Assembly: GCA_018896675.1 (NCBI GenBank)
Contig: JAHIMK010000004.1
Span: 1 to 47,298 of the forward strand
Reading direction: 5' to 3'
DNA: 47,298 nt
Source: Nanobdellota archaeon
GTDB lineage: Archaea; Nanobdellota; Nanobdellia; SCGC-AAA011-G17; GW2011-AR17
The translations under genes and the position numbers were made by a program. The notes beneath the pieces are model-generated. The model worked only from the letters and a program-made list of their open reading frames with translations, did no database searches and was not told the DNA's origin. Below, piece by piece: positions 29,331-44,178 of the stretch. Position 1 is the first letter of the stretch. Each line of letters starts with the position of its first letter.

Positions 29331-29376
29331 ATTTCTCCCATATTAATTCTTTATTTACTGATATTTAAAAGTTGTG

Positions 29377-29787
29377 CTATCTCATATTATCCTTTAATTT
29401 AGCCAACATTTCTTCCATTTCTCCTTCCGCATATTTAGAAGATTTCCATTTGGCAACATCTAAACCATCGCCATTATTCCTAGGAATAACATGAAAATGC
29501 ACATGTGGTACTAATTGCTCTGCCGCTTTCCTATTATTCTGCATTACATTAAAGCCGTCATTTTCCTTCAACAAAGCACATCCAATCTTTTTTACTACAT
29601 CAATAGTTTTTTCTAATAATGCATTAGGAACATTAGGGATGATTTCATAGTGCTCTTTCGGCACGATTAAAGTGTGCCCCTTTGAAGCAGGCGCTATATC
29701 TAAAAAAGCAATTACATGATTATCTTCATAAACTTTTGAACAAGGTATTTCACCTTTTACAATCTTGCAAAAAATACAATCATCCAT
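29377..29787 (-). CDS. HIT family (histidine triad) nucleotide hydrolase
   Basis: CIFCKIVKGEIP N-terminus and the histidine triad HVHFHVIPR. Confidence 0.9.
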   Translation of the reverse strand: MDDCIFCKIVKGEIPCSKVYEDNHVIAFLDIAPASKGHTLIVPKEHYEIIPNVPNALLEKTIDVVKKIGCALLKENDGFNVMQNNRKAAEQLVPHVHFHVIPRNNGDGLDVAKWKSSKYAEGEMEEMLAKLKDNMR

Positions 29788-29788
29788 A

Positions 29789-29971
29789 TTACTCGCCTTT
29801 TTTCATTCCAGAAAATATTTCCTTTCTTCCTTTTGCTAAATTTTCTAAAATTTGGGATTTTGCCATTTCTAATAAACCAATAGCTTCCTGTGGAGAAATA
29901 TTCTTCTGCTTTATTTCCGTTTGAATATTATTATCTATAACCCTAAATTTTATTTCAAATGACCTATCCAT
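29789..29971 (-). CDS. small hypothetical protein (60 aa)
   Basis: The ORF ends 1 nt upstream of the HIT gene start on the same strand. No family recognised. Confidence 0.4.
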   Translation of the reverse strand: MDRSFEIKFRVIDNNIQTEIKQKNISPQEAIGLLEMAKSQILENLAKGRKEIFSGMKKGE

Positions 29972-30049
29972 CCTCTCTTGAAATATTGCTTAGTTTTTAA
30001 ATCTTTCTTGCGAAGGTTTTTAAATAATCTCTTTATTTTAAATTTAAAG

Positions 30050-30565
30050 ATGATAAAGAGATATGTTTTAGAAGGGGCAGCCAATTCTGGTAAAACAACT
30101 TTATTGCACTTATTGGGCAAAAAAGGATTTCAAGTATGCCCTGAAATTGCTACTGAAATTATAGAAAGAGAACAAAACATAAAAGGTGAATTATTACCTT
30201 GGATAAATAGGATTGCTTTTGATCAAGAATGTTTAAAACAATTAATAGAAAGATATGATTCAATAAATCATGGTATTGTATTTTTTGACAGGGCATTTAC
30301 AACTAATTTGGCATATCACAAAATGTATGGCTCTTGCCCAGAATGTTTGGAAATCATTGACAAATTTCATTATGATAAAATATTCTTATTAGAAAGGCTT
30401 CCAAATTATAAAAAAGATAAAATAAGGAGATTTGATAATGAAACAGAAGATAAGATCCAGTCTCTTATTGAAAAGAGTTGTATTGAGCTTAATTATGATC
30501 TAATTCATGTTCCTTTAATGTCATCTATAGAAGAAAGAATCGAGTTTATTTTAAAAAATCTATAA
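30050..30565 (+). CDS. P-loop NTPase (AAA_28/NadR-like kinase fold)
   Basis: The ATG at 30050 (MIKRYVLEGAANSGKTTLL, Walker A) lies ~26 nt downstream of TTTTTAAATAA. The track ORF starts at an upstream TTG (29978). Confidence 0.7.
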   Translation: MIKRYVLEGAANSGKTTLLHLLGKKGFQVCPEIATEIIEREQNIKGELLPWINRIAFDQECLKQLIERYDSINHGIVFFDRAFTTNLAYHKMYGSCPECLEIIDKFHYDKIFLLERLPNYKKDKIRRFDNETEDKIQSLIEKSCIELNYDLIHVPLMSSIEERIEFILKNL

Positions 30566-30606
30566 TTCTACAAACCTTTATTAATATAAGGATATTCCTA
30601 AGAAAT

Positions 30607-30972
30607 ATGGATTGGATAAGAATTCTTTTAACAGTTGTTGCCCTATATTTAGTTTTTTTAGTATTTACTAAATTTACAAAATGGATTTTCAAGATAGTTA
30701 TTGTAGTTTTATTATTAGGAGTAGTTATTTATGGCAATATAAATTATTCTGATTTAATAGGTGGAGAAGATTTAATTCCTTTAATTGAAGACAATGTTCA
30801 AATTAATCCTTTAGTAGCAGAAGATATAGTATTAGAAGAGGAAATTAATTTAAGCTTAGAAGAAGATATGATATTAATAGAAGAAAATATTAATCAATTG
30901 AACGAAACAATTGAAGAAGAATTCTTAAATGAAACAGAAATAATTAATGTTTTACCTGTAGAAGGGATGTGA
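30607..30972 (+). CDS. membrane protein with acidic C-terminal tail
   Basis: Two TM helices followed by an E/I/N-rich acidic region. No family recognised. Confidence 0.5.
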   Translation: MDWIRILLTVVALYLVFLVFTKFTKWIFKIVIVVLLLGVVIYGNINYSDLIGGEDLIPLIEDNVQINPLVAEDIVLEEEINLSLEEDMILIEENINQLNETIEEEFLNETEIINVLPVEGM

Positions 30973-31929
30973 ATTTTTATATTGTGGCCTTTGCATTGTA
31001 TAAGCTTCAAGTTCTTGTGGCGAATACCAATAAGCTTTTTCACTGAACAATTTAGGCAGAATAAATATTCCCTGTGCTAACATAGGACCAATCCTAATAT
31101 AATCAGCCAAGGGAGCCAAAGGATGCAAAAATAACATCTTTTCAACCATTTCACTCTTCTTCGGCATTAAATCATCGATAAACCTGAATTCTGAAAAAAA
31201 TAATACATGATTCATTTCATGTGATTTTGAACTTAAGTCAAAATTATCAGTTTGACAATTCCGGCAATAAGTCATTATGTTTTGAGAAGCATATCCTCCT
31301 ATAAACTCCCCTTTTTGTTGTATTTCTAAAGGTACTTCAAATGAGAATACAGGGGTGAAATTATAAATTGTTTCTTTTAATTCAAATTTATTTTTGTCAG
31401 CAAAATTCTTTATAATAGATACAATAGGCGATATATGGACATAAATTTTTGTATCTTTGCCTTTTTCAAAATGGACTTCTAATGGTCCAAAATCAGTCAC
31501 ATATCTTGATAGAATAGGTTTGCTTAACATAACATTATCAGACATTGAAACGCCTAAATCATGAACAAGTTTACCAGTAGCCCCTAAAAAAGGAAATTCA
31601 TTGAATGATGCAATTTCTTTTCCGGCATAAACAACTGCTCCTGATAAAATTCCTTTACCAAAAGCAGGCCAAAAATCATCACCATTGTATTTGGCTCCAA
31701 TTCCCGATTTTAAACCATTAATAAGTAAGTCAAAGCCTAAAACAGTTAATCTTCCTTCTAAATTATAATCTCTTGCTTGGGCTTTATTTTGTTCTAAAGT
31801 AATTTCAGTCTTATATTCAACCTTTTGTTCTATTGTTTCTTGTTTAGAATGAATATTTATGGTAGGACCAAATAATGTTATTAAACCTAAGGCGGCAGCC
31901 ATAATTTTGTTTTTTAAGCCCATGATCAT
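30952..31929 (-). CDS. secreted HExxH-motif protein, unknown family
   Basis: The ATG at 31929 (MIMGLKNKIMAAALGLITLF signal) lies ~26 nt downstream of a TATA-like AAAAATTAATAAA. SHEMNHVLFF motif. The track ORF extends to an upstream TTG at 32007. Confidence 0.55.
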   Translation of the reverse strand: MIMGLKNKIMAAALGLITLFGPTINIHSKQETIEQKVEYKTEITLEQNKAQARDYNLEGRLTVLGFDLLINGLKSGIGAKYNGDDFWPAFGKGILSGAVVYAGKEIASFNEFPFLGATGKLVHDLGVSMSDNVMLSKPILSRYVTDFGPLEVHFEKGKDTKIYVHISPIVSIIKNFADKNKFELKETIYNFTPVFSFEVPLEIQQKGEFIGGYASQNIMTYCRNCQTDNFDLSSKSHEMNHVLFFSEFRFIDDLMPKKSEMVEKMLFLHPLAPLADYIRIGPMLAQGIFILPKLFSEKAYWYSPQELEAYTMQRPQYKNSHPFYR

Positions 31930-32020
31930 TTTTGAAAACTTTGCCTTTATTAATTTTTGGTAAATCTCTTTGAATAAACAGAAAGCTTTATAAATAGCTA
32001 CTAGCAAATGGTTACCTGCT

Positions 32021-32971
32021 ATGAAAAAGTCATATATTTATGGAAAAACTTTTATTAAAAGAATATTGAATCATGAAAGGGATTTTACAGGTATAGTGTT
32101 ACAGCCTTTATTTGATTTCAATGAAGATAAAAATTTATTTATGAAATTATCTACATATTTTAAACAATTTTCTAATACTTTCCAAGAAACTCCTTTAATC
32201 TTAAATGAGGCCATTATGAAAGGCATCAAAATGTCAAATTTAGAAATTCCTTATTTACAGGCAGAAAACTTAGATATTTCTGAATCATGGTTGAGAAAAG
32301 TAAATTTACCTAATTCTAATATGCCTATTTTGCATGCATGGGATACAAGAATAGATTTTTGCGATTTTACAGAATCTATTCAAATAGGAGCTAATTATTG
32401 TGATGCTAAAGTAAATAATACCATCTATAAGAAAGCTAATTTAAATCAGATAGTTTGTGACCCTAATACTGTATTTGATAGCTGTATTTTTACAGACGGT
32501 TATATGAGGGGAGTTAATTTAGCACATGTTGGTTTTTATAGATCAATTTTACAAAGATTAGATGTTAATAAAACTGATTTTTATTTTACAAATTTGGAAA
32601 AGGCAGACATAAGAGGATTAAGAAATATTAAGTCTAGTCGGAATTTACATAAAGCATTTTTAGATGGTGCAAGGATGGGTTCAAATGAATATGTTGAAAT
32701 TAAAAGATTAAAAGATTTGGAAGATTTAGATTTGCCTTTAGTTGTAGGTAAATTAATACCAGAGTTAGATTTAGAAATGGAATCTCTTGTACAAAGATTA
32801 GGAGAAGACCATGAACCAGTAACTTTCCCTAAAAAACCAACTAGTTCTACATATTTGGATGATAATTTTTCTTTTGATGAATTTATATTTAGGGTTGCTA
32901 AAATCCCTAACTTAGAATCTGAAGTAGACTTAGATGAAGAATTAAGAAGGGATATTGAATTAAATTTTTAA
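32021..32971 (+). CDS. pentapeptide-repeat-like protein
   Basis: The central region has A(D/N)L-type five-residue periodicity (ANLNQIVCDPNTVFDSCIFTDGYMRGVNLAHVGFYRSILQRLDVNKTDFYFTNLEKADIRGL). Confidence 0.55.
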   Translation: MKKSYIYGKTFIKRILNHERDFTGIVLQPLFDFNEDKNLFMKLSTYFKQFSNTFQETPLILNEAIMKGIKMSNLEIPYLQAENLDISESWLRKVNLPNSNMPILHAWDTRIDFCDFTESIQIGANYCDAKVNNTIYKKANLNQIVCDPNTVFDSCIFTDGYMRGVNLAHVGFYRSILQRLDVNKTDFYFTNLEKADIRGLRNIKSSRNLHKAFLDGARMGSNEYVEIKRLKDLEDLDLPLVVGKLIPELDLEMESLVQRLGEDHEPVTFPKKPTSSTYLDDNFSFDEFIFRVAKIPNLESEVDLDEELRRDIELNF

Positions 32972-33150
32972 TGTCTTGTCGCAGTTGGCTTAGGAATTAA
33001 ATTGTCTTTTTGTGCTTCATTAAAAGCTTGTCCAATAATTTTAATGTCCCATCCTGCATTTAATAAAGCATTTTTTATCTCTAAGGCGGAATGACCATAA
33101 TAAAAGTTGTATTTGATATAACATTTCAATTCAATAAAATCTTCATTCAT
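32968..33150 (-). CDS. small hypothetical protein (60 aa)
   Basis: Overlaps the end of the 33143 gene by 8 nt. No family recognised. Confidence 0.35.
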   Translation of the reverse strand: MNEDFIELKCYIKYNFYYGHSALEIKNALLNAGWDIKIIGQAFNEAQKDNLIPKPTATRH

Positions 33151-34177
33151 CTTTTATAACCTCTTTCTTAATAACTAATTTAGAACTTGCACCACCCATG
33201 CCTAGGATGGCTTGGACTCTATATCCTTCAAAATCAGCATCTAAGATAGGGGTTTCTTCAGATAATGTATTGCCTGTAGCTTTTGCTAAACGGGCTAACA
33301 AAACATTCAAATCTTTTGTTTCTGTAAAAATTAAATTTGTTTTCATTTTCCCATAGCCTTTAAAATCAATTAGTACTGGCTTATTAAGTCCATCAACATA
33401 AATTGCATTAACCTTTTTGTCATACATAATTGGATCTATTTTTCTAAAACCTAGAAGGTCTCTTTTCAAATAATAAATAAAATCTTTAATAATTTCAGGA
33501 GTGCATTCTACATCTTCTTTTTTACAAGCTTTTTCAATCTTTTTATTTATGTAATCAGCATTATCTAAAACTTGAAAATCTTTTTCAAAATCTTTTCTTA
33601 TATATTCCTTTATAAGAAGTAATATCTCTTGTTTAATTAAAGGCTCTTGAAGATTATAAATTGGATTTCCTACTTCATCTTCTTTAACATCTATGCCAAC
33701 ATTAGTATCAAAAGTTGAAACTATATATCTTTGCGGTTGAAATTCAATTGGAGCAGCAGCAGGTGGCAATAAATCAATTTCTCCAAAAGGTTCACCTAGT
33801 TTTGGAGTTAACGGTTTATTGTTAACAGGTACTTCTGGAACAACTTCTTTAACAGGCCCTTTACTAGTAATCATAACTGGGGCAACAACTGCAGTTAGTT
33901 GAGGCATTTGGGCAGGAGGTTTAGGAGCTATAGGCAAGGGTCTTATCTTTGATATCATAATGGGATGACGCATATGTTCAAATTTAGAAGAAACATCTTC
34001 TTCCTGTTTTAGGGGCTTATGTTTTTTTTGATGCACTTGAAACATGGCTTCAACAAAATTTGCAAGAATTGTAGTCTTAGGATCAGGGAAAGGGTCTTTT
34101 CTTACTTGCCTGAATATTTCTTCAATTGTTTCTTCTCTTTCCTTTTGCACTCTATCAAATATAAATTTCGTTGACAT
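33143..34177 (-). CDS. FlaI/GspE-type secretion ATPase N-terminal domain protein lacking the ATPase core
   Basis: YYLKRDLLGFRKIDPIMYDKKVNAIYVDGLNKPVLI .. KTNLIF .. LARLAKATGNTLSEETPILDADFEGYRVQA .. SSKLVIKK matches the N-domain of archaeal type IV pilus/archaellum ATPases up to the 'ftIRKf' strand. The ORF then stops. There is no Walker A/B and no room for one downstream. Confidence 0.7.
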   Translation of the reverse strand: MSTKFIFDRVQKEREETIEEIFRQVRKDPFPDPKTTILANFVEAMFQVHQKKHKPLKQEEDVSSKFEHMRHPIMISKIRPLPIAPKPPAQMPQLTAVVAPVMITSKGPVKEVVPEVPVNNKPLTPKLGEPFGEIDLLPPAAAPIEFQPQRYIVSTFDTNVGIDVKEDEVGNPIYNLQEPLIKQEILLLIKEYIRKDFEKDFQVLDNADYINKKIEKACKKEDVECTPEIIKDFIYYLKRDLLGFRKIDPIMYDKKVNAIYVDGLNKPVLIDFKGYGKMKTNLIFTETKDLNVLLARLAKATGNTLSEETPILDADFEGYRVQAILGMGGASSKLVIKKEVIKDE

Positions 34178-34197
34178 TTTTTTAATACTTAAGATCC

Positions 34198-34563
34198 TTA
34201 ACGTTCGCCGAAAGGTTTAGGAAAAGAAGTGTGCACTACAGATTTTTCTCTAACAAACTTCTCAAGCAATAATAGGCCCTTTGCGATATTCTTGTTTTGT
34301 TCAAGCAAATCATCCAGCTTGTTAATTAATGGGTCTTCATACTTGCCTTTCTTTATATGTTCGCCTGCTTCTGTAAACAGTTTGACCATATTTTTAACAT
34401 TTGAGCTAAGGTCTTTCATATCAAGAATTAAATCTGAGAGCTTGTGTTGTAATGCAATATTATTCTCAATCAATGCGCCAACAAGCTTATCTAACATTAG
34501 ATTGCCTTTTACTAATTGGCCTTCTTTCATTTTTGGATGTTTCATAGAACTTTTTTTTGTCAT
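34198..34563 (-). CDS. hypothetical coiled-coil protein (121 aa)
   Basis: The ORF has AAAAGTTTATATATA upstream on the minus strand. No family recognised. Confidence 0.55.
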   Translation of the reverse strand: MTKKSSMKHPKMKEGQLVKGNLMLDKLVGALIENNIALQHKLSDLILDMKDLSSNVKNMVKLFTEAGEHIKKGKYEDPLINKLDDLLEQNKNIAKGLLLLEKFVREKSVVHTSFPKPFGER

Positions 34564-34633
34564 AAGTATTCCTCTTTTTAATAAATACTAAGTTAGTTTG
34601 AATATATATAAACTTTTCGAGAACTTATTTTTT

Positions 34634-34720
34634 AGTTTTAGAAGCTTTCTTTGTTATTGTTTAGTTTGATTTTGATTGGATTAATTGTTGTTTATTGGCA
34701 GGGGCAAGGTTATTTAATTT
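34634..34720 (+). repeat. repeat R, copy R1
   Basis: AGTTTTAGAAGCTTTCTTTGTTATTGTTTAGTTTG.. matches R3 at 34 of the first 35 nt. The inner end ..GGCAGGGGCAAGGTTATTT is similar to those of R3 and R4. Confidence 0.85.
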
Positions 34721-34729
34721 TTATTATCG

Positions 34730-35020
34730 GAAGATTTTATGTTCCAATTAACAAAAGAAGAAGTTGAAAACTTGAGGTGTCAAAATGGTACTTCAAGAGC
34801 CAAACAATCTTTAAGGTCACAAAATGTGGCTTTAGAAGCAGAAGACTTGATGTCGTAAAATGCGACTTCAAGTAATGAACCTTCTTTAAGATTCCAAATT
34901 GGAACCTTAAAGATTAAAGGAGATTTAAGATTGCAAAATGCGACCTTAGAAATAAAAAGAGGTAAACATAAAAAATATTTGCCTTATGTATTTGCCTTAG
35001 CTAACAAAGCTAGTTGTTGA
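34730..35020 (+). pseudogene. ORF6N-domain protein C-terminal fragment with in-frame stop
   Basis: A single frame reads EDFMFQLTKEEVENLRCQNGTS..LRSQNVAL..LMS*NATS..LRFQIGTL..LRLQNATL..RGKHKKYLPYVF. This is the FMFQLTxEExxNLRSQxxTS...GGRRYLPYAFTE signature of ORF6N proteins. The N-terminal DNA-binding half is absent, there is a TAA at 34856-34858, and the 3' end runs into repeat R2. Confidence 0.75.
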
Positions 35021-35064
35021 TATAAAAGAAAGACAAAGCAATTAATGAAAGCTTCTATAATAAA
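34990..35064 (-). repeat. repeat R, copy R2 (partial, inverted)
   Basis: TTTGCCTTAGCTAACAAAG...AATGAAAGCTTCTATAATAAA aligns with R4 (CTTGCCTCTGCTTAACAAAG...AATGAAAGCCTCTATAACAAA). Confidence 0.7.
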
Positions 35065-35658
35065 TTATTTTTGACTTATAGATATATATGAATCACAAGT
35101 TTTATGAATTTTGATAATATTTAATTTTAAAGAATTTAACATTTCTTGTATCTCTTCTCTTTCATAAGCTTTTACAAAAGTATTGCTCTTTTTCATTAAA
35201 TATCCGTCTTTGAAAGGAATGCCTTTAGGCCTAACATATTTGTTTATGTCATAAGAGTTTCTTAAAGATAAAATAAAGTAACCACTTTCTTTAATTGCAT
35301 TATAAACTTTTTTAAAAACTTCTTGCCTTTGTTTTTCAGTTGGCAAAACTTGAATAACAAAATTTAACATGGCAGCATCATAATTATTTCTTAAAATCTC
35401 TGTAGAAACATTATTTACTTTCTTTACTTTTTCAACATCAATTCTTTCAACTTGCTCTTCTAAATCAACAGCATCAACTTTAAATCCTTGTTCAGCCAAA
35501 AATAAAGAATCTCTTAAGAATTTACCACAGCCATAATCTAAAACTGTTCTAACCTGTTTTTCTTGCAAAAAAGGAAGAATTTTCTCCTTCATTATTTTAT
35601 TAGGTTTTGTCTTGCTTGAAGAAAGGTGGTAAACAACATTTTCAATTGAAGGTTTCAT
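35065..35658 (-). CDS. class I SAM-dependent methyltransferase
   Basis: Motif I VLDYGCGKF, acidic KVDAVDL, and AAMLNFVIQVL. It has its own TATA-like box upstream on the minus strand. Confidence 0.8.
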   Translation of the reverse strand: MKPSIENVVYHLSSSKTKPNKIMKEKILPFLQEKQVRTVLDYGCGKFLRDSLFLAEQGFKVDAVDLEEQVERIDVEKVKKVNNVSTEILRNNYDAAMLNFVIQVLPTEKQRQEVFKKVYNAIKESGYFILSLRNSYDINKYVRPKGIPFKDGYLMKKSNTFVKAYEREEIQEMLNSLKLNIIKIHKTCDSYISISQK

Positions 35659-35698
35659 AAATCGTAGTAAAGTAAATAGTATATATTAAATTAATTGA

Positions 35699-35797
35699 TA
35701 AACTTTATAAAATAGCTATTTTTCAATTAAAAATATGTTAGTAAAAATATATGGTTTACTGGATTTTAATAATATTTAAGCTTAAAGAATTTAACAT
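35699..35797 (+). repeat. duplicated promoter and 5' end of the 37956 gene, fused to a 31-nt methyltransferase fragment
   Basis: 35699-35766 matches 37921-37987, with AAACTTTATAAAA and AAAAATATGTTAGTAAAAATATATGG(T/A)TTACTGGATTT identical. 35766-35797 matches 35112-35142 at 28/31. Confidence 0.85.
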
Positions 35798-35885
35798 AGT
35801 TTTAGAAACTTTCTTTGTTATTGTTTAGTTTGTTTTTTGTTGAGTAGGTTATTTGATGGCAGAGGTAAGTGTTATTGAGCTTAAT
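35798..35885 (+). repeat. repeat R, copy R3
   Basis: See R1. The inner end GCAGAGGTAAGTGTTATTGA matches the reverse complement of R4 at 19/20. Confidence 0.85.
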
Positions 35886-35977
35886 GTATGTTAATTTCAA
35901 TAAAATTTCCATTTTCAATTAATAAAATGCAAAGCTTTATATATTATTGACATCTTCTCTATGACAAGTGATATAAT

Positions 35978-36568
35978 ATGTATGACAAGACAGAAATTAG
36001 GATTTTGGAACAAATATATCTTAATCCCGGGATTCATAAGAGAAAACTTTCCAAGCAACTCAAATTAGGAATGCCATCTATAGATTACGGACTTAAAAAA
36101 ATAAATAAATTAATTAAACAGAAAAATGTAGGTAATCAGATTAATTATTTCTTGGATTATTCAAAAGAAATGCTTAGTTCAGCACTTGGCTCTGTTGAAC
36201 ATTCCAGATTTGAGAGACTCCCACCAAAAGTAAGATTATCTGTAAATGATTTCTTAAAAGAATTAGATGAAAAGCCAATAATTGCTGTTATTTTTGGTTC
36301 TTATGCAAGTAGCACTTATACAAAGAACTCAGATATTGACATTATGTTAGTTTTTCAGAAGATTGAGGATTCTAAGAAGATTGAAAATACTGCAAAGAAA
36401 ATTAGCATGAAAACCAATACACAATTAAATCCCGTTTATCTTAGTTATCAAGAATTCAAAGAATCATTCCACAATTTAACTAAGGAATTTTTCAAAAAGC
36501 TTAAGAAAGACAAGATAATTTTAATTGGAATTGAATGGTGGAGGCAATTAATTGATGAAGAAGCCTAA
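35978..36568 (+). CDS. nucleotidyltransferase (MNT-like) with N-terminal wHTH
   Basis: The N-terminal ~90 aa is HTH-like (ILEQIYLNPGIHKRKLSKQLKLGMPSIDYGLKKI). This is followed by the pol-beta NTase motif IFGSYASSTYTKNSDIDIMLVF (GS..DxD). Confidence 0.8.
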   Translation: MYDKTEIRILEQIYLNPGIHKRKLSKQLKLGMPSIDYGLKKINKLIKQKNVGNQINYFLDYSKEMLSSALGSVEHSRFERLPPKVRLSVNDFLKELDEKPIIAVIFGSYASSTYTKNSDIDIMLVFQKIEDSKKIENTAKKISMKTNTQLNPVYLSYQEFKESFHNLTKEFFKKLKKDKIILIGIEWWRQLIDEEA

Positions 36569-37097
36569 TTGGAAGATTTGGTTAAAAGACAAGAAAGAAT
36601 GTAAATTTTGGCTAGATAGGTATATCAAGAAAAAGATACTTAAGAAAAGTTCTAATGAATCAAGATTACACTTAAGAAGAACAGATCATAACTTAACTTT
36701 TGCCAATTGGATTATTGAAAAGCATAAGAATGAAATTCCAGAAGTTTTTGGTGGCGATAATTTTTATGATTGGGTAATCAGTATTTATTACTACGCAATT
36801 TATCATGCCGCTTTGGCTTTAATAAGTAAAGAAGGATTTACTTCAAAAAATCATTCTGCAACTTTGGCTTTTCTGATTTACCATCATTACCATTTGCAGA
36901 AAGCACTTGAAAAAGAAGATGTTGAATTAATCGCTAGTTCTTTAGACAGAGAAGATATTGAAATTCTTGGTGTTTCAAAGGAATTAAGAGAAAAAGCGTG
37001 TTATGATATTCATGAAATATTTGAGAAGAAATTAGCTGAGCAGATCAAGGAAGAAGCAGTTGATTTTGCAAATAAGATTAAGATGTTGTTGAAATAA
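36552..37097 (+). CDS. HEPN domain protein (partner of the nucleotidyltransferase)
   Basis: Overlaps the NTase gene by 17 nt. The all-helical pattern YYYAIYHAALALISKEGFTSKNHSATLAF is typical of NTase-associated HEPN proteins. Confidence 0.65.
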   Translation: MMKKPNWKIWLKDKKECKFWLDRYIKKKILKKSSNESRLHLRRTDHNLTFANWIIEKHKNEIPEVFGGDNFYDWVISIYYYAIYHAALALISKEGFTSKNHSATLAFLIYHHYHLQKALEKEDVELIASSLDREDIEILGVSKELREKACYDIHEIFEKKLAEQIKEEAVDFANKIKMLLK

Positions 37098-37189
37098 CTA
37101 TTTATCTTTACAGTTATCACACATAAATTGGAAGAATTTTCTGTATCCATCTGTTAACATTTTTCTTTTTAGAATAAATTGTAGACTTC

Positions 37190-37501
37190 AAAAACTGAAC
37201 TGGTCACAAATTGAGACTACTTTAAATCATTAAAATATTCTACTCAATTACCTTATATTTTTACAGAACAGGGTGTTGCAACACTTTCTGGGATTTTAAA
37301 AGCAAAAAAGCAGTTGAAGTTAATATTTAAATTATGAGGGCATTGGGAAATTATCCTAAAAAAAAACAAGATGTTGTAGGAGATTATGTTTCTGAAGAAT
37401 TACGGATAGCATTAGAAACATTGAATTCTATTAATGACCCACCAAAAGAAAATATTGTTTCTGTGGTTAGAGGTTCACTTGGATATTTACAGCGACCTTG
37501 A
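37190..37501 (+). pseudogene. degraded ORF6N-domain gene remnant
   Basis: LNWSQIETT (37198-37224), then in another frame LPYIFTEQGVATLSGILK (37248-37301), then after a further frameshift and stop KSKKAVEVNI*IMRA. These are conserved ORF6N C-terminal motifs scattered over three frames. The 55-aa ORF 37334-37501 is the tail. Confidence 0.65.
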
Positions 37502-37608
37502 GTTTACCCCTTTTCTAAAATTAGCATTTTAAAAATTGATTTTATTTTCTAAAAAAGAAAATTGGTAATTTCATTAATTATATAAAATCTCTTCTATTAA
37601 AACAATTA

Positions 37609-37780
37609 TGAAGATTTTAGCGATAGGAAATCCGCATGGAAAACTTCCAAAAAATTTAGATTCTATCATTAAGAAAAATAAAATAGAAATTATAATTTGT
37701 GTAGGGATATGGCATATATTCCTAAAAAACCTTGGATAGAAGATTCTTGGAAAGGCACCAGTCAAAAAGTAGTCTTTTAG
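37609..37780 (+). pseudogene. metallophosphoesterase N-terminal stub (frameshifted, truncated)
   Basis: MKILAIGNPHGKLPKNLDSIIKKNKIEIIICVG reads on as DMAYIPKK.. only after a 1-nt shift at the GGG run near 37708. It stops after ~57 codons. A leaderless-type TATA (TTAATTATATAAAA) is upstream. Confidence 0.6.
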
Positions 37781-37829
37781 TGTAAGCGTTCTTATCATCT
37801 AGGTCACAAAAAATTGAATATGAACATCT

Positions 37830-37926
37830 ATTAAGTATAATTCAATAACACTTGCCTCTGCTTAACAAAGAATTTCTTCTACCAAAAACAATACAAACAA
37901 AATAATGAAAGCCTCTATAACAAACT
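37830..37926 (-). repeat. repeat R, copy R4 (inverted)
   Basis: The reverse complement reads ..TTATAGAGGCTTTCATTATTTTGTTTGTATTGTTTTTGG...GCAGAGGCAAGTGTTATTGAAT.., collinear with R1 and R3. Confidence 0.8.
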
Positions 37927-37955
37927 TTATAAAACAATTATCTTAAATCAAAAAT

Positions 37956-38219
37956 ATGTTAGTAAAAATATATGGATTACTGGATTTAGCATTAGGAATA
38001 AACTTACTATTCTTATATTGGAATATCTTTCCATTTTCAGTATTAATCTTTGCCTTACCTATTTTAATCAAGGCAATCTATTACATTAAAGATCCTTCAA
38101 GCATTGTAGATTTAGTTGCTGTAATTTTTACAATTCTAGCTTTCTTAGGTTACTTTCCAATCTTTACATTTGTATTTGCGTTTTGGTTTTTACAAAAAGG
38201 CTTTAGAAGTATGTTTTAA
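37956..38219 (+). CDS. small membrane protein (87 aa)
   Basis: Three predicted TM helices. Promoter AAACTTTATAAAAC is upstream. The first 11 codons are duplicated at 35735-35767. Confidence 0.6.
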   Translation: MLVKIYGLLDLALGINLLFLYWNIFPFSVLIFALPILIKAIYYIKDPSSIVDLVAVIFTILAFLGYFPIFTFVFAFWFLQKGFRSMF

Positions 38220-39280
38220 TTATTTTTATAATAATCTTCAGATTCATTAGTATTATTATCACTATCTACACTACCATCAATAGTACCATCTGCACTATCA
38301 CCTGCAACAAATTTCTCTTCATCATCCTTTTCATTATTATTATTATTATTATCTACTATTTCTTCAATCTCTCTCTTGCCAATAGATTCTTCCTGCATTA
38401 TTTCTTGCCCAATCATGTTCAATGCCTTATTGAATGTAGTTCCGGCAATCATGCCTTTGGCTAAGTTGCCTTGACTGCCACCCGGCTTAACAATGTCCAT
38501 AAACTCTGTAGGAATCATCATCTTAGATGACTTCATGTTTTCTAAAGCTTTGATATATAGGTAAGTGGTAGTTTTATCATCAAATGTTTTTGTTCCTTCA
38601 CCTAATGCAGCTGTAATAATTCTTCTAGCTTCTGCCATGAATCTTTTGGCTTCAAGCTCTTCTTGTGCAACTCTCTTACCTCTTAATGCATCCATTATTT
38701 CTTCAGGAGGATCTAACTTTGCAATTTCAAAAGTTGTAATTTCTAGACCCCAATTTTCAGTAACAGAAGCAACCTGTTTTCTTAAAGCATCAGAAATATC
38801 TTCAATATTAATAACTAATTGAGTAAAAGTAAATTCTCCTGCTAAATCTCTAACTCTGCTTCTAATTAGTTCAACTAAGGCTTCTTTGTAATTTTGAATG
38901 TGTAATACAGATTTAACAGCATTAGTAACATAAAAATAAGCTATAGTTCCTAAATTTATCTCCAAACCTTCTTGAGATATGATTGGAATTTCAATATCTT
39001 GCCTTTGTTCTCTTAAATCGACAACAGCCCCAATCCTTTCCATACCAGGTATTAAAATAGTCCATCCAGAAGGTGAAGCTCTATGAAATCTGCCAAACCT
39101 GTAAATTAATGCAGATTCGTAAGGCTCAAACTTTTTAACAAAGAATTTGAAAAATATTACTAGAAACACAACAGCGCCAAACAATAATGCTATAGGGACT
39201 AGTACATTAGCTAATTGCAAAAGAATAATAATTGCTGCAAATATTAATAATGCTATTATGCCCCACATATGCTTTCTCAA
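38216..39280 (-). CDS. SPFH/band 7 (stomatin-prohibitin) family protein
   Basis: N-terminal TM helices, then an SPFH core (YESALIYRFGRFHRASPSGWTILIPGMERI .. RSRVRDLAGEFTF .. WGLEITTFEIAKLDPPEE..) and a coiled coil. The acidic/Asn-rich tail includes N6. Confidence 0.85.
   Translation of the reverse strand: MRKHMWGIIALLIFAAIIILLQLANVLVPIALLFGAVVFLVIFFKFFVKKFEPYESALIYRFGRFHRASPSGWTILIPGMERIGAVVDLREQRQDIEIPIISQEGLEINLGTIAYFYVTNAVKSVLHIQNYKEALVELIRSRVRDLAGEFTFTQLVINIEDISDALRKQVASVTENWGLEITTFEIAKLDPPEEIMDALRGKRVAQEELEAKRFMAEARRIITAALGEGTKTFDDKTTTYLYIKALENMKSSKMMIPTEFMDIVKPGGSQGNLAKGMIAGTTFNKALNMIGQEIMQEESIGKREIEEIVDNNNNNNEKDDEEKFVAGDSADGTIDGSVDSDNNTNESEDYYKNN
38333..38350. repeat. (ATT)6 microsatellite encoding Asn6
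   Basis: A perfect trinucleotide run inside the C-terminal tail of the SPFH gene. Confidence 0.8.
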
Positions 39281-39404
39281 TTAACAGCTGATTTAAATAA
39301 CTTATGCTTTTTCTTGCTAAAAAGTGGTTATATATTTAAAATAATAAATAAATTTATATAGGGGTATTAGATTTCTAACTTTAAAATTTTAAGGAGGAAT
39401 ATAA

Positions 39405-40061
39405 ATGGAGAATAAAATAACTTTAGAAAAAGTTGCAGATTTTAATTTCAATAAGATAAGGGAAGAAAGGATTGCACCACAATCTTTAACTTTTAGTCCT
39501 GATGGAAAATTATTGGCAGTAGCTTCAATAGATCGTGGCTTTAATAGTTTAGTTAATTTGTTTAAAATAGGTAAAAAATTATCTTTGAAAGATGAAGTGA
39601 TTATAGGAGACCATTATACTATTAAAGACGCTTTTTTTGATATTACAGGATCATATTTAATAACTTTAGGCAGTTATCCTTTTTATGGTTATCATCCATT
39701 AAAATCATTTAAATTAAATAAAGAGAAAATAAAATTAGGTTTTAGAAAGGATGGTATTTCAAGATCAGTTTCTTTATTAAAACAGAAAGATTTGAGTATT
39801 TTAGATTGTGCCTATTTGGATTATTGTAAGAAAGAAGAGATAGATAATTATTCATATATAAAACAAAAAGAACTTAAAAAACTTGATCTTGATTTTCTAA
39901 ATGAATTATCTAAAAAATCAAAGTTAAAGTTAAAAAAAGAAGAGAGATTATTATTGCCTGTACTTAGTCCTGATAATAGCCTCTTAGCAACTATTAGGCA
40001 TTTTGAGGGTCTTGGTGTTTCAGAGACATGTTTCTTAGATTTATATAAAATAAAGGCTTAA
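39405..40061 (+). CDS. hypothetical protein with beta-propeller-like SPDG motifs
   Basis: Strong SD AAGGAGG lies 8 nt upstream. LTFSPDGKLLAVAS and LSPDNSLLATI resemble WD40/TolB-like blade motifs. Confidence 0.55.
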   Translation: MENKITLEKVADFNFNKIREERIAPQSLTFSPDGKLLAVASIDRGFNSLVNLFKIGKKLSLKDEVIIGDHYTIKDAFFDITGSYLITLGSYPFYGYHPLKSFKLNKEKIKLGFRKDGISRSVSLLKQKDLSILDCAYLDYCKKEEIDNYSYIKQKELKKLDLDFLNELSKKSKLKLKKEERLLLPVLSPDNSLLATIRHFEGLGVSETCFLDLYKIKA

Positions 40062-40174
40062 ACTGTCTTTTTTTCTTTTTAATTTCTACATAGACCAAAC
40101 CACCCAAACATTTATAAAGGCCGATTTAATAACTACGGAATGATAAACCTAGAAAGCTTTTCGGAGGGCAAAAA

Positions 40175-42112
40175 ATGAAAATTAAGGCATTATTATGCAT
40201 GTTGGCAATTATGATTTTATCTATTGTGCAGGTTTCTGGCGTAGTAATATTCCATGATAGTTATTTGCAATTAAATAGTGTTTCATCAGTATCTGGTAAT
40301 CCAAATGATTTGGTTACTGTTATGTTTGAAGTAGAAAATATAGGTAATGATACTATTAATGAAATTCAAGTAATTAGTTCAAATTTAGTTTTAGTTGGTG
40401 GTGTAGAAACTATTCCAGCACCAGTAATAAATAGTATAACAAACTTACTAAAAAGCACTACACGGCAAAGTTCATTTGCTTTAACTATTCCTTCAGTCCC
40501 AGTAGGGGTTTATACTGGAGAATTAAGAACTATTGATATTAACGACCCTTTAAATGCTGACAAGGTTAATTATTCAGTTACTGTAACTGAGGCAAGGAAT
40601 TTTGATTTATCTACAAGCAGTTTAAAAATTACTTCTCAACCAAATGATGAAGGAGAAGCTAGGTTTACAATAACAAATACCGGAAGTTCAAATTTAATAT
40701 TTGATTTGGATACAGAAGGCAACTTTGTAGATGATGATTATGATCCAATTAACATATACTTTTCTGCAGTAGACCCATTACTTCCAGGACAAAGTGTAGT
40801 GGTAATTGTTACAGCTGATGTTGACAATAGTGTTGATGAAGAAGTATATTCAGGTAAGATTAAAGTTAAATCAGGAGATTTAGAAAAAAAGATTGATTTG
40901 ACTGTTGAAGTACAACCAAAAATTTGTAAGTATGGTATTGTGGGAAACTTAGAAATATCTTTACAAGAGCCAGATAATAATGAAGAATTTAGCCCTGGCG
41001 AAACTATGCAGGTAGAGGTCCGAGTTGACAATAAATATTCTAAAGATTTGGATGTTGTTGTAAAATTAATACTTTATAATATTGATGAAAATGAAGAAGT
41101 TGCTTCAGTAACTTCAGAAGAAGAAGAAATTAATGATGGCGATCATGACACTTATGATTTAAAGTTAAAAATACCAACTTCTGATTTGGATGAAGATGAT
41201 GAATATTTCTTGTATGCCAAAGCTTATGAGGCTGGCGATGAAGATGAACATTGTATCTTTGATAGAGTTAAGATAGTAATTGAGAGAGGCGACGATAACA
41301 TTATCGTTAAAAGTATTGAACTTGATAAAGATACATACTCTTGTAGAGATTTTGTATATGTTGATGTTGAAGTAGAAAACATTGGTACAGATGATCAAGA
41401 AGATGTTTACATCTTGTTAAAAAGCAGAGACTTAGGGGTTGACCTAAGATCAGAAAGATTTGACTTAGATGAGTATGATGATATTGATAGCAGTTATGGT
41501 GTAAGGTTTGAATTTGAAGTTCCAGCCGTTAAATCTGGCGAGTATTTTTTACAAGCTTATGTTAATTACGGTAACAATGAGCTTAATTCAGATTACATTA
41601 AGTTAGTAGTTGATGATTCTGTATGCTCAGTAAAAGAGCTAACAGAAGCTAGAATTGTTTTAACTCTAGTAGAACAAACAATTATAGTAAAACCAAGGCA
41701 AAAGAAGTTTGTAATTCCATTAAAAATTGAAAATATTGGTGGAAGTCAAGCTTCTTTCACATTAGATGTTAAAGAAGAATCTGGTTGGGCTAATGTAATT
41801 GGCGTAGAAGTTCCTGAAATTCTTAATGGTAGGGAAGTATACCATGCATATGTTTACATGGAATTGTTAGGCAATGTTGCTGAAGGCACCCATAACTTAA
41901 GAGTTAATTTAAGGAATGGCGATGCTTTATTGCAGTCAAAAATGCTTAACATTGAAATAGAAGAAGGAACATTAAATACTGGCGTTGAAGAATTGGATGT
42001 GGCTTGGTTAAGTAACATTTTTAGTGACAAAAGCAAATTGTTTTGGTTCATAGGAGATGCAGTTTTGGTAATTATTGCTTTATTCTTTATTAGGATGCTA
42101 CTAAGAAGATAG
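40175..42112 (+). CDS. surface (S-layer-like/CARDB-type) protein with C-terminal TM anchor
   Basis: SD GGAGGG and a signal peptide. Repeated beta-sandwich signatures (VMFEVENIGNDTINE, ARFTITNTGSSNL, VDVEVENIGTDDQEDV, LKIENIGGSQASF). C-terminal TM plus basic tail ..ALFFIRMLLRR. Confidence 0.7.
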   Translation: MKIKALLCMLAIMILSIVQVSGVVIFHDSYLQLNSVSSVSGNPNDLVTVMFEVENIGNDTINEIQVISSNLVLVGGVETIPAPVINSITNLLKSTTRQSSFALTIPSVPVGVYTGELRTIDINDPLNADKVNYSVTVTEARNFDLSTSSLKITSQPNDEGEARFTITNTGSSNLIFDLDTEGNFVDDDYDPINIYFSAVDPLLPGQSVVVIVTADVDNSVDEEVYSGKIKVKSGDLEKKIDLTVEVQPKICKYGIVGNLEISLQEPDNNEEFSPGETMQVEVRVDNKYSKDLDVVVKLILYNIDENEEVASVTSEEEEINDGDHDTYDLKLKIPTSDLDEDDEYFLYAKAYEAGDEDEHCIFDRVKIVIERGDDNIIVKSIELDKDTYSCRDFVYVDVEVENIGTDDQEDVYILLKSRDLGVDLRSERFDLDEYDDIDSSYGVRFEFEVPAVKSGEYFLQAYVNYGNNELNSDYIKLVVDDSVCSVKELTEARIVLTLVEQTIIVKPRQKKFVIPLKIENIGGSQASFTLDVKEESGWANVIGVEVPEILNGREVYHAYVYMELLGNVAEGTHNLRVNLRNGDALLQSKMLNIEIEEGTLNTGVEELDVAWLSNIFSDKSKLFWFIGDAVLVIIALFFIRMLLRR

Positions 42113-42174
42113 TAGCTATTTTCTTTATTTTTTTCATAAAAATATATAAACTCTTATTATATTTTTAGTTTAAA

Positions 42175-43038
42175 ATGATTAAAAAAGGACTTTTAACAGG
42201 TTTAGCTCTTTTACTAACTTCTGGTTGTGTATCAAAAGATTATGTAAAAGAACAAGTACAATCAGCCAAGGACTATGCCAGTATTCAAGCATTTCAATCT
42301 GAGTTAAGAGCATGGAATCTAGAACAAGAATTAGAAAAGTATAAACAAAAGTTTAGTTGTTGTTTTGATAAAGAATATGATTATGATAAGAGATGCATTG
42401 ATGGCACACAGTTTAATCTGGAGGATTTAGCCGGGGCAGTGTATGAGATCCAGATTTTTAATTTTCTTAAAGATAAACATGGCAATGAAATAAAGGCTCC
42501 GATTATTACGAAAGGTGCTGGGATTTTATTGGATAATGGCTATATATTGACTGCCAAGCATATTGTTAATCTTAAGATGATTTATAACTTTCCAAATGGA
42601 CAAACTTTAGAGAAACAAATAATGATTTTGGGAAGTGAAAAAAACTTTGCCTTCATTGAGCTGGTGAAGCAGAGCGAGAAGTATGATGTAGCTTTATTAA
42701 AAGTTAAAAGTAAGCATACTTTGAAATCTTATGATTTTAAATTTGGAAAGGCTGATGAATTGAAAAAGGGAGACTTTCTTTATTTTATCGGCGATCCCTT
42801 AGGTTTAGGAATAAGTTTGAGCCAGGCTATCTATGCCAATAAAAAAGTTCCTTACGACTCAACAATTTTCAATTTGAATATCCCTGTTGCTCATGGATAT
42901 TCTGGCGGACCAGTTATAGCATTTAGGGATGGCAACCCAGAAATTGTAGGAATAATTAAACTGACTTCAGAAAGCAATGCTGGTATTACAAAGATAGAAT
43001 ATGCATTAGAGGAATTTAAGGAGTATCTTCAGAAATAA
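42175..43038 (+). CDS. trypsin-like serine protease (S1 family) lipoprotein
   Basis: Lipobox LLLTSGC. Catalytic triad contexts TAKHIV (His), YDVALLKV (Asp) and AHGYSGGPV (Ser). Confidence 0.8.
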   Translation: MIKKGLLTGLALLLTSGCVSKDYVKEQVQSAKDYASIQAFQSELRAWNLEQELEKYKQKFSCCFDKEYDYDKRCIDGTQFNLEDLAGAVYEIQIFNFLKDKHGNEIKAPIITKGAGILLDNGYILTAKHIVNLKMIYNFPNGQTLEKQIMILGSEKNFAFIELVKQSEKYDVALLKVKSKHTLKSYDFKFGKADELKKGDFLYFIGDPLGLGISLSQAIYANKKVPYDSTIFNLNIPVAHGYSGGPVIAFRDGNPEIVGIIKLTSESNAGITKIEYALEEFKEYLQK

Positions 43039-44092
43039 TTTTTTTTAAATATTCAATTCCTTCTTTTTCTTCTTTAGGAATTTTATTTAATATTTTTATC
43101 AATTCTTCTATATCTGAATATTTTTTATGAACTTTATATAACAATGGAAAATTTTTATTGTAAGGAATAGAGTCCCATAAATCAGCATTATTTTTCATAA
43201 AACTTGAATTCTTAAAAATCTCCTTCTTTTTCTTTAATTTTTCTTCATAATTTAATTTTTTTGAATACAGTCCAATTAATTGTTTATTTAAGAAAATTAA
43301 ATGTTCTGCTAAATCTAATTTAAACTGTAAATTAAGTTTTGACAGAACATATTCTTTAGAATTTTCACCAAAATGTTCTTTAGCATATTGTATGGTGCCA
43401 ATATTTCCAATTAAACAGGCTACACTTTCTTCTAAATTAGGATTCCAATCTTTTTTAAGGACAGTCATATGTAAATCTTCATGCAAAATAGTATTTACTT
43501 TATGTAATAATTTTCTTTTAATAAATTCTGGAGTTATATCACAGTTTCCTGCAAAGTCTGTAATTTTTCTATAAAAAACATCATATCCTCTTCTATAATA
43601 ATAATATTTTTCATCTTTTAAATCATCAACTTTGGAAATAAGCAAGGCATATTTGTCTATGTCATCAACATGCCATCCTTCTTCTTTAATGAATATATAA
43701 TTATCTCTTTTTTGAGGAATAAAAAATTTACCAGTAACATAAAGCCAATAATTAGTTTTAGGGTTTTCGTTTATTTTATTTTTGTAAACCATATAATTTT
43801 TGGATTTTACTAAATCAAATGTTTTCATGCCTAAACTTTTTACATCAGCAATAAATTCAAATTCCGATATTAATTCTTGATTTAAATCAGATTCGCAAGC
43901 ATAAAATTCAAATCCTTTATTTGTAACCTTGGCAACATCTTTACACTTTAAATCAGTATCATGTTTTACATAATGATCAATAACAGTAACAACTTCTTTT
44001 TCAGGTTTTATATCAGGAGTTGGTTTGATATTATGGCATCCTAAAGAAAAAGTTACAAGCCCTAAACCAGCAAGAAGTTTTTTCAAACTCAT
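43016..44092 (-). CDS. putative zinc aminopeptidase-like lipoprotein (HExxH)
   Basis: Lipobox FSLGC. ILHEDLHMT followed by LEESVACLIGNIG resembles the 'putative aminopeptidase' (DUF2265-like) gluzincin pattern. Confidence 0.55.
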   Translation of the reverse strand: MSLKKLLAGLGLVTFSLGCHNIKPTPDIKPEKEVVTVIDHYVKHDTDLKCKDVAKVTNKGFEFYACESDLNQELISEFEFIADVKSLGMKTFDLVKSKNYMVYKNKINENPKTNYWLYVTGKFFIPQKRDNYIFIKEEGWHVDDIDKYALLISKVDDLKDEKYYYYRRGYDVFYRKITDFAGNCDITPEFIKRKLLHKVNTILHEDLHMTVLKKDWNPNLEESVACLIGNIGTIQYAKEHFGENSKEYVLSKLNLQFKLDLAEHLIFLNKQLIGLYSKKLNYEEKLKKKKEIFKNSSFMKNNADLWDSIPYNKNFPLLYKVHKKYSDIEELIKILNKIPKEEKEGIEYLKKIISEDTP

Positions 44093-44178
44093 AAAAACAA
44101 GGAAATCACTAAGGCTTTATATATTTTTATTAAAAAATTGCATAATCTTTATATATTATATAGCAATCTTCTTCTAAA

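Follow-up and report, generated by a model that had tools for sequence, protein, structure and literature searches.

A family of repeats of about 80 bases separates swappable defence and toxin-antitoxin cassettes in Nanoarchaeota

Four copies of one repeat in a cassette island

The window analysed here is a stretch of 47,298 nt with 29% G+C from a Nanobdellota archaeon (assembly GCA_018896675.1, contig JAHIMK010000004.1). Between a gene of 121 amino acids (aa) and one of 87 aa, hereafter the host genes, it carries a 3.3-kb island of small cassettes, intact or decayed: an ORF6N fragment, a methyltransferase, a nucleotidyltransferase/HEPN toxin-antitoxin pair and a second ORF6N remnant (Table 1). 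A sequence that we call R occurs four times in this island (R1 to R4) and belongs to a previously undescribed family of sequences of about 80 bases which separate swappable defence and toxin-antitoxin cassettes. Our comparison shows that R marks cassette junctions and that the locus is a hot spot with cassette turnover. As to what R is, we lean, with a little better than even confidence, towards the conserved junction of small cassettes that lack an integrase, bring their own promoters and sit at a few chromosomal hot spots of Woesearchaeales-type Nanoarchaeota. L-numbers (L013, L025, L045 and so on) denote comparison contigs or loci that carry R or orthologous genes.

Four copies of one AT-rich sequence had been noticed in the initial annotation of the window, and all four are genuine. 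Sensitive self-BLASTN aligned R1 with R3 (82% identity over 83 nt, E 6e-12), R3 with the reverse complement of R4 (75% over 81 nt, E 1e-8) and R2 with R4 (68% over 73 nt, E 8e-6). A four-way alignment likewise showed the four copies, whose refined coordinates are given in Table 1. Two striking matches described earlier were recovered as well: R1 and R3 differ at one position in their first 36 nt, and the inner end of R3 agrees with the reverse complement of R4 at 19 of 20 nt. A composite pattern built from the two best-conserved ends of R, TAGARRCTTTCWTT-N38-52-GCWRRGGYAA, matched the window at R1 to R4 and nowhere else, and had no match in 100 dinucleotide-preserving shuffles. No fifth copy was detected in the 47 kb with a profile of 53 unique members (nhmmer --max, no filters, E<=1). 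The window copies are rich in T and G, and their orientations alternate (+ - + -).

Low G+C content and the T-richness of the repeat might suggest that the four segments are alike by chance, and repeated segments may also arise as assembly artefacts. Four pattern matches against none in the shuffles, BLASTN E-values down to 6e-12 and some 60 other copies at nhmmer E-values as low as 1e-19 all speak against chance. Moreover, the island arrangement recurs at 99.4-100% identity in contigs of at least four independent assemblies of the same species, which excludes an assembly artefact; the 11 strain contigs of this species display a single island arrangement. This explanation therefore has next to no probability: R1 to R4 are real repeats, and chance resemblance is excluded.

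Table 1. Features of the island and of the host genes that flank it
Feature	Position	Strand	Remarks
Host gene, 121 aa	34198..34563	-	Left flank of the hot spot; no Pfam family; promoter 34564-34632
R1, border repeat	34633-34714	+	nhmmer E 7e-8; outer end toward the promoter of the 121-aa gene
Decayed ORF6N cassette	34723..34990	+	Pfam ORF6N, E 2e-4
R2, internal repeat	34988-35064	-	nhmmer E 2e-15
Intact S-adenosylmethionine (SAM)-dependent methyltransferase, 197 aa	35065..35658	-	Pfam Methyltransf_23, E 4e-9; TehB
Chimeric junction	35700..35797	+	Two partial gene copies overlapping by 13 nt
R3, internal repeat	35797-35876	+	nhmmer E 2e-9; 82% identical to R1
Winged helix-turn-helix (wHTH) nucleotidyltransferase (MNT)	35978-36568	+	Pfam NTP_transf_2/Polbeta
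HEPN	36552-37097	+	Pfam HEPN; toxin-antitoxin pair with MNT (35978..37097)
Second ORF6N remnant, frameshifted	37188-37322	+	Found by tblastn with ORF6N cassette proteins
R4, border repeat	37842-37924	-	nhmmer E 1.5e-12; outer end abuts a TATA-like box of the 87-aa gene
Host gene, 87 aa, membrane-like	37956..38219	+	Right flank of the hot spot; Band_7 synteny in L045/L046 and L050

An orthologous hot spot in related species

The locus can be followed into relatives through the 121-aa gene, whose orthologues are syntenic in L045/L046, L050, L048/L049 and L171-L173, and through a 344-aa neighbour whose orthologues are annotated as Nanoarchaeota or Woesearchaeota. In the distant relatives L171 and L172 (48% for the 344-aa orthologue), the 87-aa and 121-aa genes are directly adjacent, separated by about 200 nt without R, which answers the question of synteny raised with the first description of the island. 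L173 (46%) has a 90-aa open reading frame (ORF) and about 380 nt between the host genes, likewise without R. The 200 nt at this position in L050 (70%) hold two truncated outer halves of R in inverted orientation, one against each host promoter. The corresponding interval of L045/L046 (79%) reads R(+), a second R(+), ParE/MazE and R(-), and that of the window, our query, R1 to R4 with 3.3 kb of cassettes.

The promoter region of the 121-aa gene can be aligned across four species, and the promoter-proximal R copies align base for base across the three species that have R. R1 has its orthologues in L046 (6354-6428) and in the right half-R of L050, and R4 shows at least 90% identity in its outer half to L046 5525-5601 and L050 858-905. 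In view of this orthology across three species, R1 and R4 are old, fixed borders of a single locus, a hot spot, and not the ends of two elements; what lies between them has been exchanged. Such cassette turnover at orthologous loci supports the earlier suggestion of a recombination-site family which shuffles cassettes between the genes starting at 34198 and 37956. The L050 site itself (858-975) is not a clean empty site: its inverted R outer halves surround a 21-nt spacer, and it gives the impression that an inverted-repeat structure has lost its centre.

Census and sequence character of the R family

Beyond the window, R was found on 18 metagenome contigs of related Nanoarchaeota. The window and 20 other loci together gave 59 strong profile matches (nhmmer E<1e-6) with 53 unique sequences, and E-values on unrelated contigs reached 1e-19. 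A scan of JGI metagenome contigs yielded 25 loci, 17 of them genuine, and a scan of GTDB species representatives eight matches, among which only L013 is genuine. The R-bearing loci have 25-35% G+C throughout.

R is about 75-80 bp long, with two strongly conserved end boxes. Conservation sets in abruptly at the outer box, TAGnnGCTTTCTTTG or TTGTAGnnGCTTTCTTTG, and ends just as abruptly at the inner box, TAGCwGAGGCAAGTG, about 75 nt further on. The middle part exists in two subtypes. Mean pairwise identity among copies is 67%, and blocks of perfect identity are short. We rejected the idea that R is coding or a fragment of a gene, as most copies have stop codons in all six frames. Read from the side of the upstream gene, that is, as its reverse complement, R has stop codons in each of the three frames within 45 nt in 26 of the 53 copies, compared with 22% of composition-matched shuffles. 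R may act as a universal stop module for any ORF joined to it.

Folding of R, one of the tests proposed initially, revealed no structure on either strand. As single-stranded DNA (ssDNA), the four window copies folded on both strands with only -1 to -4.7 kcal/mol (z -0.7 to +0.45 against shuffles), and RNAalifold on the 53-copy alignment returned two trivial pairs at -0.41 kcal/mol, with no consensus structure and no covariation. In the absence of a fold and of a consensus structure, R is not an attC site, a hairpin-type transposon end or a structured RNA. The 53-copy alignment contains no conserved dyad; a mini-dyad centred on CTAGCT is confined to one subtype. A palindromic outer core, AGAAGCTTTCT, was considered and discarded, its symmetry being broken in most copies by two variable positions after TAG.

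The view that no element with this repeat has been described held up in every collection that we searched. Rfam had no R match at the gathering threshold or at E<=1; IMG/VR had none to the strict pattern; PLSDB gave one match at chance level and phage genomes gave none. A loose pattern produced 120 matches in IMG/VR, all of which we dismissed as chance, and nhmmer one marginal match (E 3e-4). Our literature search found the R repeat described nowhere, and found no description of RNase P RNA as an archaeal integration site.

Arrays, polarity and cargo

Outside the window, R commonly forms same-direction arrays, with 10 copies in 10.9 kb in L038, seven in L025, four in L039 and three in L044. 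Copies are spaced by 0.3-2.8 kb and separated by one to three ORFs. R is polar with respect to genes: its inner end is met by the 3' end of a gene in 33 cases and by a 5' end in 12, its outer end by a 5' end in 32 cases and by a 3' end in eight, and for 13 of 33 upstream ORFs the stop codon lies inside R. Array heads are formed by the RNase P RNA gene, the stop codon of a permease gene or host promoters. Inverted units, R(+)...R(-) with inner ends toward the cargo, occur twice in the window, twice each in L026 and L029, and in L024, L033, L034 and the L046 locus. L021 and L037 contain single copies beside single cassettes; these solo cassettes lie between housekeeping genes and have the form module, gene or genes, R.

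The cargo elsewhere is of the same kind as in the window island. It comprises NTP_transf_2/Polbeta (six proteins), ORF6N (four), Bro-N (four), SLFN-AlbA_2 (three), methyltransferase families (three) and HEPN (two), as well as KilA-N, ParE/MazE, YhcG and radical SAM proteins. Cassette content also differs between close relatives: L027 has an extra cassette compared with L023, flanked by a duplication of about 17 nt just inside the inner end of R, and L029 has extra units and cassettes compared with its close relative L030.

Upstream of unrelated genes, a conserved 5' module of about 70 nt (CTGAAAATnTGTTCACAAAACCGGACAAGAAAATAAATACTAGTTCTTTAT...) usually begins 1-7 nt beyond the outer end of R. 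It extends to the start codon of genes as different as YhcG, ORF6N, MazE and MNT and carries TATA-like boxes in many cassettes, which suggests that each cassette may have its own, putative promoter. Near-identical modules are found at L021 7655-7745, L033 1172-1260, L046 6205-6345 (-), L027 2290-2385 and L037 2345-2480. Between L021 (YhcG) and L033 (ORF6N), identity runs through the start codon and about five codons (MDKEV), and this identity past the start codon echoes the duplicate of a promoter plus 11 codons at 35700-35766 in the window.

The inverted units bear on a second option in the initial annotation, that R is the terminal inverted repeat (TIR) of non-autonomous transposons similar to miniature inverted-repeat transposable elements (MITEs). 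Units A (34633-35064) and B (35797-37924) would then be two such elements, moved by a transposase whose gene lies elsewhere. R(+)...R(-) units do recur, twice in the window and at least seven times in other loci; unit A resembles an internally deleted derivative; and direct repeats of 8-12 nt lie outside four of 12 inverted units (each p<0.01), such as TTATTTTT beside unit A. However, these repeats are imperfect and vary in length, and the check for target-site duplications thus turned up none of fixed length. At least three of the four are copies of recurrent flank modules (the RNase P 3' end; AATTTACTGTTT), while the 8-nt repeat of unit A matches no known flank module, and no duplication flanks unit B or the R1...R4 pair. 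Furthermore, inverted pairs are no more common than solo copies and same-direction arrays, which reach 10 copies, the pair conserved across species is R1/R4 and not R1/R2 and R3/R4, the remaining 44 kb of the window are free of R, no transposase was found, and a fixed orientation to genes is unexpected of a transposon end. With arrays, polarity, lack of dispersal and the orthologous R1/R4 borders all against it, the transposon explanation is weak and in our judgement quite improbable.

Insertion beside the RNase P RNA gene and a candidate circle

In L013/L032, L029 and L030, R begins 7-10 nt past the 3' end of the archaeal RNase P RNA gene. Each later R copy in these arrays is preceded by a copy of the RNase P 3' end of 13, about 20, about 50 or 155-162 nt, and the intact gene is kept at one end of the array. 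The R next to the gene and a later R copy preceded by its 3' end have a perfect block of 38 nt in common, which covers the last 13-18 nt of RNase P, a T run and the outer box of R; further into the gene, the copy has diverged. These RNase P-end copies suggest serial site-specific insertion.

L013 is a contig of 3.76 kb (3757 nt) with a terminal direct repeat of 136 nt, which corresponds to the 3' part of an archaeal RNase P RNA gene. It carries one site made up of the RNase P end and R. Its five genes encode an HNH protein, a radical SAM/DUF5131 protein and three unknown proteins, with no integrase among them. An independent JGI contig, L032 (1-1330), spans the junction of the L013 ends, and this junction is compatible with a free circle. 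L013 (JAHILT010000014.1) is labelled Patescibacteria, yet it carries archaeal RNase P RNA, and it is probably a mis-binned circular or tandem archaeal cassette of 3.6 kb.

Genes and scars of the island

For the methyltransferase, the wHTH nucleotidyltransferase, the HEPN protein and the ORF6N fragment, Pfam agrees with the gene calls made from the sequence initially. The decayed ORF6N cassette behind R1 has lost about 45-50 N-terminal codons, is interrupted by an in-frame stop at 34856-34858 and has its 3' end cut by R2. Its DNA is 76% identical over 230 nt to an intact cassette in L025 (8211-8660), and this homology starts at about codon 45, 8 nt inside the inner end of R1. With tblastn, the fragment gave a match of 58% over 88 aa. 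R2 truncates the gene at a microhomology, TTTGCCTTA, and is 82% identical to the R downstream of the homologous L025 cassette. Three or four tandem repeats of about 75-78 nt occupy 34759-34961 of the fragment and encode a repeated 'RSQNxTS'-like peptide; the intact L025 cassette has the same tandem repeats.

In the manner of a canonical junction, the ORF6N remnant runs with its 3' end into the inner end of R2, while the outer end of R2 abuts the stop codon of the methyltransferase gene, a convergent layout that recurs in L023 and L026. The methyltransferase gene sits between the outer ends of R2 and R3. R3 turns its outer end toward the methyltransferase promoter, in the same relation that R1 and R4 have to the host genes, and its inner end toward the MNT promoter. 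A chimeric junction next to R3, reported earlier as the start of the 87-aa gene fused to a methyltransferase fragment, was recovered by repeat finding and self-BLASTN. Here 35700-35766 is a copy of 37922-37987, that is, of the promoter and 11 codons of the 87-aa gene (88% over 67 nt), and 35754-35797 is a copy of methyltransferase positions 35099-35142 (86% over 44 nt). The two are joined by a 13-nt microhomology, and the chimera ends exactly at the outer end of R3.

MNT/HEPN is the commonest cassette type of the R family, with homologous pairs in cassettes of L026, L029, L030 and L037. In the window, the pair and the ORF6N remnant behind it read into the inner end of R4, again a canonical junction. 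This degraded remnant, announced without a position for unit B, could be placed by its similarity to the ORF6N protein L038_9140-9448 (54% over 39 aa, E 9e-11) and also to L026_66-935. A 'phosphoesterase stub' proposed at 37608-37739 was not confirmed: it has no Pfam match even when joined across its frameshift. Gene fragments and chimeric junction are decay scars, not functional fusions. We also discarded single inversions, between R2 and R3 or other pairs, as the origin of the island, since none restores a canonical same-direction array.

A second strain-variable insertion lies 1.1 kb from the island. A 761-bp segment with a 218-aa ORF (39334-40094; ORF 39405-40061) is missing from L001 and L002, which are otherwise 99.5-99.99% identical to the window, and from the 79%-identity relative L045, where the Band_7 gene directly precedes a 642-aa gene.

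Search for a recombinase

The window encodes no recombinase or transposase according to Pfam on 40 of 53 ORFs, precomputed Pfam annotation of about 27955-47298, the stretch spanned by L001/L002, and a motif scan, in agreement with the initial impression that transposase, integrase and recombinase genes are missing. The box-II motif was absent from every ORF of at least 150 aa, and no tRNA or tmRNA target was found in the window. A free-standing ORF at 25557-26363 (-) has LAGLIDADG_3 and HNH_repeat domains and resembles a homing endonuclease; in the relative L045, a LAGLIDADG_3 gene adjoins a PHP-domain gene. The sole match to a mobile enzyme in the R loci is an insertion sequence (IS) of the rve family (DDE) at L033 103-1062, bounded by inverted repeats (TGTGTTATCC) and unrelated in sequence to R. 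It lies about 30 nt from an R copy and replaces array sequence that is present in L025, a contig 99.7% identical.

Interpretation of R as a cassette junction

If R is a cassette junction, R2 and R3 would be the junctions left by cassettes inserted between the borders R1 and R4, namely ORF6N, the methyltransferase, and the MNT/HEPN pair with ORF6N remnants behind it. Both the chimeric junction and the gene fragments would stem from later deletions and microhomology joins at or beside R. Cassettes would enter, leave and flip through recombination at R, and the likeliest agent would be a site-specific recombinase acting in trans, supplied from another part of the genome or by a helper element, which would exchange strands within the outer box or close to it. 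We infer that recombination at R is site-specific and that the exchange takes place near this box.

Several observations weigh against R as the junction of mobile cassettes. Neither the window nor about 150 kb of R-bearing contigs, on which 93 proteins were searched with Pfam and with regular expressions for motifs, yielded a recombinase of any class; only the unrelated IS of L033 came up. All strain contigs of the window species have one and the same island arrangement, and neither a circle nor an inversion isoform has been demonstrated. R lacks the dyad symmetry typical of a recombinase core site. Related cassettes share their upstream R in two cases, solo cassettes keep the downstream R only, and R identity is weakly tied to either flank (0.73 and 0.76 against a background of 0.67). 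Moreover, inverted pairs are common, which simple polar recombination from site to site does not predict, and several breakpoints lie at the ends of R or outside it, which suggests that illegitimate joins contributed as well.

Part of this evidence would suit the main rival explanation, in which R and the 5' module form a regulatory or insulating intergenic linker that would provide stop codons, antisense T-run terminators, an upstream promoter element or a regulator site. No dedicated recombinase would be involved; turnover would be left to ordinary homologous or illegitimate recombination, for which the linker provides portable homology. Its strict polarity relative to transcription is what one would expect of a linker, as is the frequent extension of the repeat unit by about 70-180 nt on the promoter side, including the shared 5' module. 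The closure of all three frames in about half of the copies points the same way, as do the terminator-like T runs on the R strand after the RNase P RNA, the permease gene and the window methyltransferase. The failure of our scans to find a recombinase and the microhomology joins at the edge of R or outside it fit as well. However, copies with 67% mean identity and short perfect blocks are poor substrates for homologous recombination. The position-exact ends of R beside dozens of unrelated genes, the copies of the RNase P 3' end with their common 38-nt block and the candidate circular form are what site-specific insertion predicts, and regulation alone leaves unexplained why the cargo is almost entirely of the mobile type. 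On balance, we find the linker explanation unlikely, though it deserves to be taken seriously.

The cassette-junction reading can be extended, more tentatively, to a second, attC-independent system of cassette capture in DPANN archaea of the Woesearchaeales type. Small circles, each with a polar double-stranded site of about 80 bp and a promoter module, would be inserted serially by a putative recombinase in trans, both at R sites and at the 3' end of the RNase P RNA gene, and would build up arrays of ten or more; the window island would be a scrambled and partly decayed platform of this kind. We see this extended scheme as a possibility with somewhat more to be said against it than for it.

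DPANN archaea have tiny genomes and depend on hosts, and little is understood of the ways in which they gain and swap genes for defence and toxin-antitoxin systems. If the scheme is true, cassette capture would be broader than the integron paradigm, and its platforms, having neither an attC fold nor IntI, would be invisible to integron finders. It would also explain hypervariable loci in DPANN genomes, and the R profile would provide a sequence handle with which to inventory the mobile genes of Nanoarchaeota in metagenomic data. Should R turn out to be a regulatory linker, it would still be a conserved expression module of dozens of unrelated accessory genes, which is itself unusual. The RNase P RNA target and the possible circular cassette of 3.6 kb make the cassette idea testable with existing reads.

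Comparison with known repeat-demarcated systems

Integrons and clusters of attC sites lacking integron integrases (CALINs) resemble the R loci in several respects. Short cassettes stand in tandem, mostly in one direction, and are divided by a conserved repeat, and the ORF upstream of this repeat has its stop codon within it or directly beside it. Genes for toxin-antitoxin systems and DNA modification abound in the cargo, as do unknown genes. As in integrons, where the Vibrio cholerae repeats (VCRs) of Vibrio are an example, copies within one genome are similar to each other, and as in CALINs, arrays occur without an adjacent integrase and cassette content varies among close relatives. An attC site, however, is an imperfect palindrome that folds as an ssDNA hairpin with paired R''/R' and L''/L' sites, and integron cassettes are generally promoterless and expressed from a common promoter, Pc. 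R is no imperfect palindrome, does not fold as ssDNA and has no R''/L''/L'/R' core sites. Unlike integrons, the R loci have no IntI, and their heads are located at the RNase P RNA gene, at the stop of a protein gene or at host promoters, not at attI. Their cassettes carry a conserved 5' module that may serve as a promoter of their own, in place of a single Pc, and inverted copies are frequent. The archaeal integrons known so far carry canonical, folded attC sites (Ghaly et al. 2022, PMC9668308).

Integrative elements that use tyrosine integrases at the 3' ends of tRNA, tmRNA or other stable-RNA genes, where they leave partial gene copies in tandem, are similar to L029, L030 and L013/L032 in that a repeat of the target's 3' end bounds each unit. 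In contrast to such elements, the R units are only 1.3-3.6 kb long and carry MNT/HEPN, HNH, radical SAM and similar genes without an integrase, and most R arrays, including that of the window, lie away from RNA genes and have no RNA-gene copy.

Among smaller modules, the pdif (Xer) modules of Acinetobacter plasmids are often built around toxin-antitoxin or resistance genes, with alternating sites on which a host recombinase acts, the modules themselves encoding none. The + - + - order in the window resembles them. The pdif sites are 28-bp dyads (11-6-11), and long same-direction arrays are atypical for them, whereas R has about 80 bp and no dyad symmetry. With MITEs such as the Correia elements, R shares the character of a short AT-rich intergenic repeat near promoters, and inverted pairs enclose remnants, as in unit A; it differs from them in the lack of fixed-length target duplications, in its same-direction arrays, in its polarity toward genes and in the lack of dispersal in the window. 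For a shufflon or invertible switch, no invertase was found, and the 11 strain contigs show one arrangement.

The R system is closest in its logic to chromosomal integrons and CALINs, and close also to serial integration at stable-RNA genes. It fails on the defining features of integrons, MITEs, self-encoded integrative elements and dif-type modules alike. There is a real chance that it is distinct from the repeat-demarcated cassette arrays known to date.

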